Origin: Octopus sinensis
Lineage: Eukaryota
Reading direction: 5' to 3'
Assembly: GCF_006345805.1 (NCBI RefSeq)
Contig: NC_043004.1
Coordinates: 26,474,001 to 26,538,000 of the forward strand
Length of the DNA stretch: 64,000 bases
The notes under the pieces were generated by a model. That model did no database searches. It worked only from the letters and a program-made list of their open reading frames with translations, and had not been told where the DNA came from. The translations under genes were made by a program, and so were the position numbers. Below are positions 33,628-42,907 of the stretch, piece after piece (position 1 is the first letter of the stretch; each line of letters starts with the position of its first letter).

Positions 33628-33785
33628 CGACAGGCTTCTTTCAATTTCTGTCTACCAAATCCACTCACAAGGCGTTGGTCAACCCAAGGCTATAGTAGAA
33701 GACACTTGCTGGAGGTGCCATATAGTGGGATTGAACCTGCAACCATATGGTTGGTAAGCAAACTACTTATTGCACAGCCACTCCA
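33625..33785 (-). mobile_element. 5' part of SINE family A (CpG-decayed)
   Basis: gacaggcttctttca..ccaaatccactcacaagg..tatagtagaagacacttgc..ggttggtaagcaa..cacagccactcc. Confidence 0.8.
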
Positions 33786-36836: not shown

Positions 36837-37546
36837 TTATTCATGAACCATGAGTCATTTCAAGTCTCTGATTAATAATCAACACCATCACTTTCAGTAT
36901 TACTGTCTGACCGCCCCCCCCTCTCACAAGGAAATCGCTGTCATTAAGTTCGCTGTCACTCTCAGGGGTCAGAATCTGATGTGCAAGTTTCATCTTCAAG
37001 TTATTCTTCCAGAATATCTACCAACTGATTAATATGTTGTCTTTATAAGATGATTGTACTAAATGATAAAAAGAAAATGAACTTAGTGCCACCTGAGAGC
37101 TAAACATGATAGGAGGTATCTGCTTTTATACATAAGTACACTTGATAACTTATCAAAACACTTGTAACACAATTAACAATTTTATCTTCCTTAGCCATCC
37201 TATCTGAATTTGTGGTAGTGTGTTAGTCCTTTCAAGTAGAAATTACATTGTATTACTTGTACTGTTATAAAAAGTTTATTAAATGCTAAAAATCTATAAT
37301 GGGCTTGCATATGCATTTATAGTCACATTTATACACTCACAGTTATACTTACACACATGCATACATATACACAGTTACATTTACACACATATACACATGT
37401 AGTCACATTTATATAAACACACATGCATGCACACACATACACACACACACATACATACATGTATACATATACTCACTCTCACACATTTGTGCAAATGGTA
37501 TCATGATTCTAATTCTGTAGTTTTTTTTTTTTTTTTTTCAGAAATT

Positions 37547-37889
37547 ATGAACAGTTATAGATATATACGGCAGTACACTGGTGCTGTGAAAGCTATTATA
37601 CTGGACTGGTCTGGCACAACACTTGACCGTTATGTAATGGCACCAGCTGTTGCATTTGTTGATGTCTTCAAGAAACATGGGGTCTCTGTATCAATGACTG
37701 AGGCTCGAGTGCCGATGGGTTTACGGAAGGATGCACACATCAAAGCATTAACAGAAAATGTTGATGTCAGACAAAGATGGAAGGAGGTACATGGAAGATT
37801 TCCTGACCAATCAGATGTTGATAAAATGTATCATGATTTCGTACCCTTACAACTCTCAGTTCTTTCCAAGTATAGCCAGTTACTTCCAG
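37547..37889 (+). CDS. phnX: Phosphonoacetaldehyde hydrolase (phosphonatase), coding exon 1
   Basis: Preceded by a poly-T tract + CAG acceptor (AG 37540-37541); ATG at 37547. Translation MNSYRYIRQYTGAVKAIILDWSGTTLD...EARVPMGLRKDAHI...LLPG contains HAD motif I (D20; DWSGT vs bacterial DWAGT) and the phosphonatase cap loop PMGxxKxxHI (M57, Schiff-base K61, H64), with the same spacing as B. cereus D12/M49/K53/H56. Ends at the donor CAG|GTAAGT (GT 37890-37891), phase 1. Confidence 0.93.
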
Positions 37890-38252
37890 GTAAGTGTGGA
37901 TCAAGCTCTCATCTTTTACATTGAATGACACCTTAGATTCTCAACTGTCACCTCCTCCAAGCTGGTATGTTAACTCCTCTCAATTACCAAGTGATGGTAT
38001 TAGACAAGGTGTTAAGTCTCTCTCTTGATGACCAGGTGATTGTGTTAAGTCTGCTTCCCAAAGACTGGGTTGTATGTTAGAACTACCAACATTTACATCA
38101 TCTCACAGTGCAAGTATCTTTTTTAAATGTATCTGTGACTGTAAACCTCTTAGCTGAAAAAAACCCCCTTTGAGGTTAAGAAGCCAGTGAAGACATGGCG
38201 TCTTGTTGGTTATCCAATTGAAAGGGTGATGCGAAATGATTGCAACCTTTCA

Positions 38253-38403
38253 GGTGCAATGGCCCAGTGGTTAGGGCAGCGGACTCACAGTCATAGGATT
38301 GTGGTTTCAATTCCCAGACCGGGCGTTGTGAGTGTTTATTGAGTGAAAACACCTAAAGCTCCACAAAGCTCCGGCGGGGGATGGTGGTGAACCCTGCTGT
38401 ACT
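38253..38403 (+). mobile_element. 5' part of V-type SINE (family B), in the phnX intron
   Basis: ggtgcaatggcccagtggttagggcagcggactcac..gtgtttattgagtgaaaacacctaaagctccac matches the head of the minus-strand copy at 38885-39189. Confidence 0.75.
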
Positions 38404-38410
38404 AAACGTA

Positions 38411-38804
38411 GGCATAGCAGTGGCTGTGTGGTAAGTAGCTTGCTTACAAACCACATGGTTCCGAGTTCAGTCCCACTGTGTGGTACCTTGGGCAAGTGTC
38501 TTCTACCGTAGCCTCAGGCTGACCAAAGCCTTGTAAATGGATTTGGTAGACAGAAACTGAAAGAAGCCCCTCGTATATATGTATATATGTGTGTGTATAT
38601 GTTTGTGTGTCTGTGTTTGTTCCCCCCAACATCGCTTGACAACCGATACTGGTGTGTTTATGTCCTCGTAACTTAGTGGTTCAGCAAAAGAGACCGATAG
38701 AATAAGTACTAGGCTTACAAAGAATAAGTCCTGTGGTTGATTTGCTTGACTAAAGGTGGTGCTCCAGCATGGCTACAGTCAAATGACTGAAACAAGTAAA
38801 AGAG
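38411..38804 (+). mobile_element. Full-length SINE family A (CpG-decayed), in the phnX intron
   Basis: Family A sequence with many CG>TG/CA changes. Confidence 0.9.
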
Positions 38805-38884
38805 TTTGACCTTAATCCATGTTAGCTTCTGGTCATTTGGTATAATGATTTCAAAGGTAGTTATTATTAAATAATGGTAATATA

Positions 38885-39189
38885 TTTGTTTGTTCCTTCT
38901 CGAGCCATGCCTGGCTCATAAGGGCCAGTTTCCTGGTTTCTTGGCGTATAGGTTCCCCACCTGAACGGGACGCTGGTCCGTCACAGGTGAGCTGCAAGAT
39001 GCAGGAGAAAAGAGTGAGAGAAAGTTGTGGTGAAAGAGTCAGCAGAAGTTTGCCATTACCTTCTGCCGGAGCCGCGTGGAGCTTAGGTGTTTTCACTCAT
39101 AAACACACACATCGCCTGGTCTAAGATTCGAACCCGCGATCTCTCGACCGTGAGTCCACTGCTCTAACCACTAGGCCATGTGCCTTCAC
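38885..39189 (-). mobile_element. Full-length V-type SINE (family B), in the phnX intron
   Basis: tRNA head ggcacatggcctagtggttagagc..gggttcgaatc; V-domain-like cacctgtgacggaccagcgtcccgttcaggtgggg..gaaaccaggaaactggccc. Confidence 0.75.
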
Positions 39190-40998
39190 GGTAATATATT
39201 TCATCTCAGTGGATTATATTGACTTCAGTATGTGGTTGAATCTCTGTGGAATGTAATACAAAGTAGACTCCAGCAGGATTTGAATTCAGAATATATAAAG
39301 AGGCAACTAAATGTTATTATACATTTAGATAGTCAATCTAAGATTTCAATCATTGTGATAATAAGGATTTCTATCAGTAGCACCAATTTGTAGGAAGAGT
39401 ACTAATTAAGACATCCCTAGTACTTGCCTGCTCTAAATTTTGTTGACCACAGAAAACTGAAACATAGAGCAGCTCACCATAGCTTTATTTCAACTCAGAG
39501 TGTAGAAGATAGTAACTAAATTTGGTAAGGTACTTTTCTGTAATAATTCTAATTGCCACTGCTTTCTTTGTGGTAATTGTTCCATTTGTTGCAATTTGAA
39601 CCAGGCCTCTAGAATGAAGATTTCCATGACCTGTCCATGCATCATTACTCTCTATATGTCTCCATGATGCTGAAAAATTATTCCTAAATCTCAGTCATTT
39701 GATAGCTTTTGCTGAACTTTGAACCCATACATAACTTCTTACATTCATGCAAGTTCAGCATCAATAACAACTATTTTGTGTCTGTCATTGATTAGTTTCA
39801 GATCACTGGACAATAATTGTTCTAACATTTCAGCTTCCTGAAATAGCTGGAAACTTATTTGAATTTTTGCATGTAATGTTTGGTACACTATTTTATTGTC
39901 CATTTGTCAAACTCAAACACTTTAGGGTCCTTATGTCCAAAGCAGCTGCCAGACTATTTCAGATTTGACATCATTGGCTGGAACTTGCCCATAGAAATAG
40001 CATATGGCAACCTACTTTATAACAATTCAGACAGGACTTGTAGTGCGTAACTGTTGTCTTGCACGTGTTTTTATTCTATAATGGCGGAGTACCTTCTCCA
40101 TGGTGAGAAAAGAATGAGTGATAGGAAGGAAACAAAGAAGAATCTGAGTAAATCTTGATGCAAGGGAAAACCAGAACAGAAGAAAATGCAGGTATTATAA
40201 CTGGTCTACTTTGGTTGTAGAAGTTGTCAGAAAAATTGCCAAGTATCCATACTTGTTATGGGGATCCAAGCTGATGTTTCTGTCAAGGTTTGGCTTTATG
40301 CTATCTCATAGTCTTTATAACAACCAGCCTTGCTGAATCCTACAAAATATCACAACATGGAAGTTGATTTGCCTACTCATTAGCTATTTATGTGTAACAA
40401 TCTCACACATGAGTGTTGTAGTTATTAATGGCAATAATCATTGCAAAGATCACCTTATGATATAACTGGTATTTGTATTTGTTTGTTCTTGAAGTATGGA
40501 ATACAAAATTTATCATGAACAGGTTTGAGATGAAAATATTATTGAAAGGATTAAAATTAAACTAAATATTTTAGTTTAATTCTTTTAATATTTAGTAAGA
40601 CATTAAGAGTGGGCACAACGGACACTCATTATTATAGGTGATTACAATAATGATGGTGATTATACTAATAATAGTAATTATAGTGATGTTGGTGGTAAAT
40701 ATGGCAATGGTAGAGATTCTTGTGATAATATCCAAATAAATAATGGCAACATTGATAAGGATTATTTTGGTAGTAATTATAATACTGAAAATGGTGTTGT
40801 TGGTGGTGTTGATGGTGGAAATGTTATGGGAACAATAATAATTATAATGATCGAGATAATGTTGATAATGTGACTTGATGATAGTTGGAATGATGGAGAT
40901 TATGTTGATGATGTAGATGATAATGTTTATGATAATGTTTAAGATTATAATAATGTTGATAATAACCCATATCAATTAGTAATTTCTTTCTTGCACAG

Positions 40999-41498
40999 GA
41001 ACTGCAGAGACAATGCAAAAACTTCGGAAAGACTTCAATATTAAGATTGGTAGTACGACTGGTTATGTACGTTCTATGGTGGATGTTGTTTTGGCAGATG
41101 TAGCAAAACAAGGTTTCACACCAGATGTTACAGTGGCTGGCGATGAAGTGATCAATGGATGCCGTCCCAAACCATTTATGATTTATCGTAATATGGATCT
41201 TTTAGATATTCATCCTATTGAATCTGTGATAAAAGTTGATGATACAGCTTCAGGTGTTGTTGAAGCACTTGAGGCTGGTTGTTGGGGTATTGGTGTGAGC
41301 AAATACAGTAACTATATGAACATTGACAGTCTTGAACAAGAGGCAGAACTCACTGAAGAGGCTCTTGAACAGCGTTTGGAACATTCACGAACTATCCTAC
41401 GTAACAGTGGGGCACACTATGTTATAGATTCTGTTGCAGATTTACCAAAAGTAGTTGATGATATTAATAGAAGACTAAGTCTGGGAGAAAAACCTTGA
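40999..41498 (+). CDS. phnX: Phosphonoacetaldehyde hydrolase (phosphonatase), coding exon 2
   Basis: Acceptor tttctttcttgcacAG (AG 40997-40998). G+GA restores Gly and the frame continues TAETMQKLRKDFNIKIGSTTGY...RPKPFM...IKVDDT...GAHYVIDS...LGEKP* (HAD motifs II-IV as in PhnX). Spliced CDS is 343+500=843 nt, i.e. 280 aa plus stop, with no disruptions. Confidence 0.93.
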
Positions 41499-41750
41499 CC
41501 TCTTATTGACTTTACTAACACAGAATGGTTTTGTTTTATGGTCTTTCATTTTATATCATCACTATATTCTTGTTCTGACAAACAGGATAAAAAAGATGAT
41601 TTGGGGTTTGTTTTTTCAAAAAGAATTTGTTTTCCATTTATTCTTTAATGAAGAAAAGGAAGAATGAAAAACTTTAGTTTTGTTTCTTAATCTCAGGAAT
41701 ATGTTTGACTCCAAAGAGTTGGAAGCATTTTTTACAAAAATTGATTTTCA

Positions 41751-41756
41751 AATAAA
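41751..41756 (+). promoter_or_regulatory. Candidate polyadenylation signal for phnX
   Basis: AATAAA about 250 nt after the stop, followed by T/GT-rich sequence; an alternative AATAAA lies at 42136-42141. Confidence 0.45.
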
Positions 41757-42907
41757 ATCAAACTTTATCTTTGTTGGTGAGTATCTCATTTAAACAAAAC
41801 TAATCTAAATTTAGATGAAACAAGTGTTTGCTCACACTTGTCATTATTCTCGATGGCGAGTTTTAACAAATTAACAAAAGTAAAATGAAATGCTTAAAAA
41901 ACGATTTAATGCTGTGCATGTATGTCTGTGCCTTTTTGCTTATGCATATCAGTAAAGGGTAAAAAAAAAAAATAATAGGTGCCTTATAAAGAGTTTCTTG
42001 AGATATTTTTTACTGTATGAACATTTCCTTATCAGCATTGCTATCATAAATATCAGTGAACCAGTGACTGGTATGTTAGAAACATATAACTAACATCTTT
42101 ATCATTCAGTAATTGCTATCTAAAACAAATATACAAATAAATATGCCTGATGATATAGGGTTGTCACTACGGCAATGACAATAAAATCTCAAGGAGGCCA
42201 GTAATGGTAGGTTAGAGGTTTACTTTATTTTGTTAGCTGTCAGTGATTAAGCTACTCAAGTTGGAAACTGTAATTGCACGAGGGTGAAAGGGTGAGAAGG
42301 TGAAACCCAAGTTCCACATAAGCAACTAATTGATTGAGGGTACATTAAGCGGGTATGTGCAAAGCTTTGTTAAACGGGAAAAAGCAAATATAATACAAAT
42401 TAAAACACAGGCCACATTTGTTACCTATATATATATGTCACTTCATATATAATACTCTTGGTTGGTGTCAGGGCATACAATGAAACAATATGAATGAGGG
42501 AACCCTTGCCATTGTCACAGTAACTTTCTAGGAGAGGGACACTGATACAAATTCTGTAGTTTCACATGCTTACCAGTCATCTCACTTTGGCCTGTCACTA
42601 GGTAATACTCATGGACACTCAGTAAGTGGTACTCAAGTTGTACTTGCATTCGCAATCCAATGACATGCAGATGTCTCTTTATGGTAACCTCATTTGTCGT
42701 TTTATCTACTAAAAGTCCTATGGTGATAGAAGAGTGGTGGCCTATGCAGACTTAACCAGTTGGAAGTACCACAGTAAATAACAACTTCTGTCTGTCACCT
42801 TTGATTCAAACCATGCAGATTTGCAACAGGGTGACAATGAGGAAGGACAAGGAGACAGAAACCATCTGTGAAGATGGAACAATCACCATGAATGTATATG
42901 TTTATAT

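Follow-up and report, generated by a model that had tools for sequence, protein, structure and literature searches.

A spliced phosphonoacetaldehyde hydrolase (PhnX) gene of Octopus sinensis and its relatives in molluscs, marine bacteria, and giant viruses

Structure and expression of the octopus phnX gene

The 64,000-nucleotide stretch of Octopus sinensis DNA analyzed here (RefSeq assembly GCF_006345805.1, contig NC_043004.1, forward-strand positions 26,474,001 to 26,538,000; called the window below, with positions counted from its first letter) holds a gene for a phosphonoacetaldehyde hydrolase (PhnX, or phosphonatase), which is a real, expressed host gene that is already annotated in RefSeq. 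Taking the evidence together, we hold with good confidence that this spliced, single-copy gene encodes a predicted working PhnX that likely degrades the animal's own and dietary 2-aminoethylphosphonate (AEP), and that it belongs to a subfamily in which lateral transfer among eukaryotes, giant viruses, and marine bacteria likely took place. The features of the gene are as follows (UTR, untranslated region).

37521..37541, + strand: polypyrimidine tract and AG acceptor before the first coding exon (T tract and CAG ending at 37541, from the sequence)
37547..37889, + strand: coding exon A (residues 1-114 and the first base of the G115 codon), carrying HAD motif I (D20-W-S-G-T) and, in the cap, M57, G58, K61, and H64; TIGR01422 positions 1-101
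37890..40998, + strand: phase-1 GT..AG intron of 3109 nt within the G115 codon, placed by the frame and by RNA-like contig joints
40999..41498, + strand: coding exon B, residues 115-280 plus TGA, with GSTTGY, R170-P, and K193-V-D-D-T (motif IV, DDxxxG form); TIGR01422 positions 104-251
41499..41821, + strand: 3' UTR as covered by RNA-like contigs from runs X9, X2, and X1, with AATAAA at 41751

Joined, the two exons (37547-37889 and 40999-41498) form an open reading frame (ORF) of 843 nt and 280 amino acids, the clean spliced frame that the original prediction had claimed. Among all GT..AG pairs within ~5 bases of the proposed sites, 37889/40999 is the sole choice that leaves the frame open; the alternative pairs bring stops into frame and were rejected. 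The product shows 0 differences from RefSeq XP_029640286 (O. sinensis phosphonoacetaldehyde hydrolase isoform X3), 1 from the O. vulgaris record, and 16 from the O. bimaculoides record. The check that had been proposed for the 37889/40999 junction also came out in its favor, since contigs that leave out 3109 nt, with GT..AG at the ends of the missing stretch, are present in all three RNA-like runs (X1, X2, and X9), which come from three studies with two organism labels and whose RNA status is the tool's guess, none being recorded as RNA. The exon-exon joint is absent from X15, a DNA-like and larger run. Downstream of the gene, the RNA-like contigs end at 41707 (X9) and 41821 (X2) or continue beyond 42500 (X1); contigs are unable to show a true RNA end, and the extent of the 3' UTR listed above is that of coverage. 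Given the acceptor ending at 37541 and the RefSeq isoforms of octopus PhnX with 3 to 4 extra N-terminal residues, at least one further exon is expected upstream. One pattern search for it gave a single candidate, at 33747 inside a repeat, which was not accepted. Within exon A, position 37622 reads C>G in two RNA-like runs (X1 and X2) and is likely allelic.

A genome search returned one copy of phnX (1 match out of 3 candidates scored), on the chromosome-scale contig C8, copy numbers from such searches of large genomes being lower bounds. The G+C content at third codon positions (GC3) is 28%. Bacterial or viral contamination of the assembly might be suspected from the 58 to 66% protein identity to bacterial genes, but it is refuted by the splice junction and has a negligible probability: the spliceosomal intron carries host repeats, spliced contigs occur in three runs, and the gene, with its GC3 of 28%, lies on a chromosome-scale contig and has orthologs in O. 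vulgaris and O. bimaculoides. The claim that this is a host gene therefore held.

Protein family, predicted mechanism, and partner genes

The octopus protein scored 299.1 bits against TIGR01422, the PhnX equivalog model (cutoff, 220), and stayed below the cutoff of TIGR03351, the model of PhnX-like hydrolases (73.4 versus 218.9 bits); a Pfam search of each exon separately yielded no family. All of the motifs named in the original prediction were found where it had placed them, namely, D20, M57, K61, H64, GSTTGY (132), RPKP (170), and KVDDT (193). In the alignment to Bacillus cereus PhnX, which has an offset of 8, D20 corresponds to D12 and K61 to K53. The residues D20, G23, T24, M57, G58, K61, H64, R170, K193, D196, and E203 are invariant in all covering ingroup rows (56 to 58 of 58), and the phosphonate-binding and metal residues are present as T134-T-G, R170, K193, and D195-D196...G200. 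HAD enzymes hold their metal through a motif IV of the form GDxxxD or DDxxxG; the latter, seen in the octopus, also occurs in 3 of the 7 classical PhnX outgroup rows.

The AlphaFold model (predicted local distance difference test score, 92.8) places the cap helices at residues 28 to 109. In a Foldseek search with this model, the top 8 matches were PhnX chains only (best E value, 2e-26; template modeling [TM] score, 0.92), and non-PhnX HAD proteins followed from an E value of 6e-12 with 16 to 22% identity, in agreement with the identity first proposed. A search of the ESM Atlas likewise returned PhnX clusters only. All of the sequence and structure tests that were run thus place the protein in the PhnX family, and catalysis is predicted. 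It shares with the PhnX enzymes of B. cereus (PDB 1RQL, 1FEZ, and 2IOH) and Oleispira antarctica (3IRU) the HAD core and helical cap, the register of D20 and K61 with D12 and K53, and the conserved M, G, H, R, K, and D residues, with TM scores of 0.75 to 0.92; it differs from them in its DDxxxG motif IV, its introns, and the lack of an operon.

Several points weigh against assigning it the classical activity. The solved PhnX chains are only 36 to 40% identical to the octopus protein; motif I of the subfamily reads DWSGT, versus DWAGT in classical PhnX; the Tyr of classical PhnX is replaced by Phe in most members (though not in Octopus, which has Tyr137); and one extra residue is inserted ahead of RP in the subfamily. 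No assay of an animal PhnX or of any subfamily member was found in the literature searched, which lacks most subscription journals and older biochemistry. One might therefore suspect a HAD hydrolase for another substrate that merely resembles PhnX, given the ~40% identity to characterized enzymes, the retention of phnX by viruses without phnW nearby, and the Ser at position +2 of motif I. Yet the pattern of motif I also speaks for PhnX, since the nucleophilic Asp is present and the +2 Asp, the general acid of HAD phosphomonoesterases, is absent, Ser replacing the usual Ala. In addition, the Schiff-base and metal residues are all kept, the equivalog cutoff is passed, and the nearest bacterial relatives are linked to phnW, which makes a different substrate very unlikely.

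By analogy to B. cereus PhnX, the octopus enzyme would act on phosphonoacetaldehyde, into which PhnW would turn AEP. K61 would form a Schiff base with the aldehyde, D20 would attack the phosphorus, and the C-P bond would break, after which the phospho-aspartate and the imine would hydrolyze to phosphate and acetaldehyde; Mg2+ would be held by D20 and D196. The Lys Schiff base and Asp attack are described for bacterial PhnX in a 2023 review (PMC10574752).

The partner genes suggested for a search were all matched in the octopus genome. PhnW is encoded by a single exon with an open frame (G000:C11:53542286-53543362; 458.6 bits versus a cutoff of 400.8). The phnX and phnW genes, on C8 and C11, are not adjacent, and an operon is not expected in an animal. 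The single-exon PhnW ORF spans 418 amino acids (L002:1360-2616), and its first 45 residues (5 R/K, 1 D/E, and 11 S/T) resemble a mitochondrial presequence; octopus PhnX has no such extension, and protist PhnX often has one. The match to phosphoenolpyruvate (PEP) mutase comprises five exons on C20 and contains the EDKx5NS motif. For phosphonopyruvate decarboxylase (Ppd), six exon matches were found, on the unplaced contigs C12383 and C10791 and, for the last exon, on C11, where it lies 161 kb from phnW on the same strand (53542286-53705023). Since two assembly gaps separate phnW from this exon, the unplaced Ppd pieces may belong there; the long ORFs in between are transposon-like only, and phnW and Ppd on C11 form a possible two-gene AEP cluster.

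With PhnX, PhnW, PEP mutase, and Ppd in its genome, the octopus can be expected to produce AEP as well as to cleave phosphonoacetaldehyde. Alternatively, PhnX might serve mainly to remove surplus phosphonoacetaldehyde, a reactive aldehyde from AEP biosynthesis, rather than to recover phosphate from AEP. The full biosynthetic set, by which the substrate arises internally, and the presumption that a predator is unlikely to be phosphate starved would fit this role. So would the dinoflagellates, which have phosphonate genes and are unable to use external AEP (PMC13608971), a caution that genes alone do not prove nutrient use. The bacterial members of the subfamily, however, lie in catabolic operons with phnW, transport, and class III aminotransferase genes, and we consider surplus removal doubtful as the main role; both roles can coexist, because PhnW is in principle reversible.

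Phosphonate breakdown has been treated as microbial, and molluscs are major producers of AEP. Because a complete set for making and cleaving AEP is host encoded, a single small recombinant enzyme would allow a direct test of a closed C-P cycle within an animal. As recently as 2023, phosphonates in eukaryotes were called cryptic (PMC10574752).

Distribution, phylogeny, and origin of the subfamily

RefSeq annotates PhnX in three Octopus species and in many molluscs, as well as in tunicates, bearing out the statement in the original prediction that PhnX-like annotations exist in other invertebrates; the octopus record and those of molluscs and tunicates carry automatic names only, such as "phosphonoacetaldehyde hydrolase(-like)." We found mollusc orthologs in a chiton, 6 gastropods, and 5 bivalves, with 61 to 68% identity to the octopus protein (11 measured); named carriers are the chiton, limpets, abalone, Batillaria, Gigantopelta, and scallop, venerid, mactrid, and unionid bivalves. 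Classical PhnX proteins are 37 to 42% identical to it (7 rows). Closer are 14 GTDB genes of uncultured marine Alpha- and Gammaproteobacteria and an acidimicrobian (58 to 66%), and bacterial carriers are patchy across Pseudomonadota, Actinomycetota, and Verrucomicrobiota. A phnW gene lies within 5 kb of the subfamily phnX in 13 of 15 GTDB loci and in 23 of 62 metagenome loci, many of which are too short to tell.

Perkinsus, foraminifera, an acantharian, and Plasmodiophora carry a sister form marked by a 2-residue insertion. The tunicates Ciona and Styela have it as well, and their protist-type PhnX looks like a separate acquisition in chordates. Among the top 120 hits of an octopus exon there was no named non-molluscan animal, and among the homologs matched there was no named coral or Symbiodiniaceae sequence; many matches have no taxon name, and the mollusc-type form may therefore also be present in other animals or in protists. 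The assembly of the bdelloid rotifer Didymodactylos (P0192) adds a third animal lineage of PhnX; there, a K-channel is joined to a classical-type PhnX domain without motif I, probably in a merged gene model. No fusion of mollusc-type PhnX was found among the 5 matches in a search of longer proteins, and the joins to an EF-hand and to a K-channel look like artifacts of the gene models.

Giant viruses carry both forms of the subfamily. Scans with P0231 and with the alignment matched 2 and 7 loci, amounting to 7 distinct IMG/VR contigs, and viral scans with the octopus protein (P0121) and with P0077 as queries gave no match. Loci L041, L074, and L080 are assigned to viruses because genes for the major capsid protein of nucleocytoplasmic large DNA viruses (NCLDV) adjoin phnX. 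One viral copy shares 71% identity with bivalve proteins. The genes on L036, L037/L042, L038-L041, L074, and L080 (also L090, L095, and L107) encode intact PhnX, and some adjoin major capsid protein or poly(A) polymerase genes; in L036, Arg replaces the motif I Gly. A more divergent PhnX-like gene, which shares 42% identity with the octopus protein, lies on a 504-kb viral contig (L043:5986-6780). Relatives of low GC might have been SAR11-type bacteria, but the loci inspected did not bear this out: 2 of them carry capsid and poly(A) polymerase genes, others share neighbors with viral contigs, and several are unclassified.

The annotated gene and the idea of animal-encoded C-P cleavage are thus already known; new here, as judged from the sequences compared, is a subfamily common to molluscs, a marine bacterial clade, and giant viruses and far from classical PhnX. 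Earlier work lists anthozoan PhnX as horizontal gene transfer (HGT) from dinoflagellates (PMC4878875, table row 29; 2016), and a 2026 preprint treats coral PhnX as HGT with PhnW and expression data, its figure legend setting the coral clade apart from "the other Metazoa" (bioRxiv 10.64898/2026.05.06.723128). Coral PhnX resembles that of the octopus in being animal encoded, expressed, and accompanied by PhnW, and AEP degradation is proposed there for coral. In the snail Biomphalaria, PhnX-like and PhnW-like proteins are listed in a hemocyte proteome (PMC6281880). One NCLDV metagenome-assembled genome has an AEP biosynthesis locus (PMC8942020), alike in placing phosphonate genes in giant viruses; that locus holds a biosynthetic Ppm-Ppd/AEPT core, in contrast to the catabolic phnX described here. 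No report of a giant-virus phnX was found in the literature searched, where most subscription journals fall outside the scope.

To describe the history of the subfamily, we used as the main tree an IQ-TREE reconstruction (LG+G4) of 51 rows of named or context-classified sequences, with classical PhnX as the outgroup. In this tree, 10 molluscs and 15 marine bacteria form one starred clade (100/97), inside which the bacteria are again one clade (100/99). This clade is surrounded by a grade of nine viral or virus-like rows (98/99); farther out lie protists, tunicates, and three more viruses, and then classical PhnX. The mollusc-bacteria grouping was recovered in further trees of this analysis too, and in all trees the bacteria are sister to or inside the molluscs. 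When the outgroup was omitted, a mixture-model tree put two viral rows among the molluscs, a placement that carried no star. In approximately unbiased (AU) tests, molluscs and tunicates as one clade were rejected (P = 1.1e-4 and 1.3e-4), and neither all bacteria as one clade (P = 0.066 and 0.10) nor molluscs as one clade (P = 0.27 and 0.34) was; the constraints were picked after the trees were seen. L043 (42% identity) was excluded from the trees, L037 from the named-only trees for its long branch, and unnamed rows from the AU tests. The strength of any reading of this topology is further reduced by the 280 columns of the alignment, the long outgroup branch, and the many relatives without a taxon name. 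As far as the sequences analyzed go, animals hold at least two separate PhnX lineages, and the best tree suggests movement from eukaryotes or viruses into bacteria.

The original prediction had considered two origins, ancient retention or transfer from bacteria, and had named nesting inside a bacterial clade as the sign of HGT. This choice proved too narrow, with giant viruses as the next branch outside molluscs and bacteria, and in no tree were molluscs nested within the bacteria. On the order of branches in the best tree, the subfamily would have arisen early in eukaryotes and been acquired and carried by giant viruses; molluscs, or a wider animal group, would have drawn on this pool, and one marine bacterial lineage would have taken the gene from the animal or viral side into phnW operons. 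The capsid genes beside phnX, the viral copy close to those of bivalves, and the patchy phyla of the bacterial carriers all fit such a route. Against it stand the unrejected monophyly of all bacteria, under a constraint named after the tree was seen, the long branches used in rooting, and the lack of a named protist in the mollusc-type half of the subfamily. Viruses also usually take genes from their hosts, and viral copies need not be donors. We regard this route as possible, short of calling it probable.

A transfer in the other direction, in which a marine bacterium of the phnW-phnX clade was the source of the molluscan phnX and introns were added later, would account for the joint clade and the indel state that its two members share. 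The tree with all bacteria on one side is not rejected, and a probably bacterial group (the P0191 cluster) at the base of the subfamily fits this direction. Intron sites also vary by lineage: the site at G115 in Octopus is apparently found in two close relatives as well, three eukaryotic metagenome loci with mollusc-type phnX (L120, L121, and L122) have an intron after the K66 codon at a site absent from Octopus, and further sites lie near residues 129, 136, and 168, differences that fit late intron gain. However, the bacteria form one tight clade in every tree and never enclose the molluscs, and the next branches outward are giant viruses, then protists and tunicates; we regard bacterial donation, too, as possible, short of probable. 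Vertical descent of an ancient eukaryotic gene in animals, with two paralogs and many losses, would explain the members in Alveolata, Rhizaria, tunicates, and molluscs, and hidden paralogy would also explain the separation of molluscs and tunicates. We think it unlikely: a clade of the two is rejected and a 2-residue indel divides them, named non-molluscan animals are lacking among the top 120 exon hits, intron sites are not conserved, and Octopus has a single copy.

Going further with the eukaryotic and viral route, we offer as a speculation, itself doubtful, that molluscs got PhnX from a eukaryote and giant-virus pool, that the phnW-phnX operon of the widespread clade of uncultured marine bacteria runs on a phnX from animals or their viruses, and that phosphonatase serves giant viruses as an auxiliary gene for releasing phosphate from the phosphonolipids of their hosts. 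Should the nesting hold, this would be one of the rare transfers of a metabolic gene to bacterial operons from eukaryotes or their viruses. In surveys of the ocean, phnX reads of the subfamily type may be bacterial, giant-viral, or eukaryotic, and counting all of them as bacterial would mislead.

Intron repeats and the rest of the window

The intron of phnX contains the following repeats.

38259..38375, + strand: SINE-like repeat (SINE, short interspersed nuclear element) with an A-box-like motif at 38260, from repeat comparison in the window and read depth
38406..38805 (start and end approximate), strand not given: high-copy interspersed repeat, likely a SINE, matched at 8 or more other places in the window, from repeat comparison and read depth
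39065..39179, - strand: inverted second copy of the 38259-38375 repeat, 80% identical, from repeat comparison

These repeats are 76 to 92% identical to other copies in the window, and read depth over them is very high in all four runs. The B-box pattern used gave no match in the 38259-38375 repeat. The SINEs that had been reported in the intron are therefore confirmed as high-copy repeats with copies elsewhere in the window and, in one case, an A-box-like motif, and their assignment as SINEs is likely. No further host gene was evident in a by-eye check of the ORFs of the window (1-64000), where the other ORFs of at least 150 amino acids resemble decayed transposons (long interspersed nuclear element, integrase, and mariner-like) or simple repeats.

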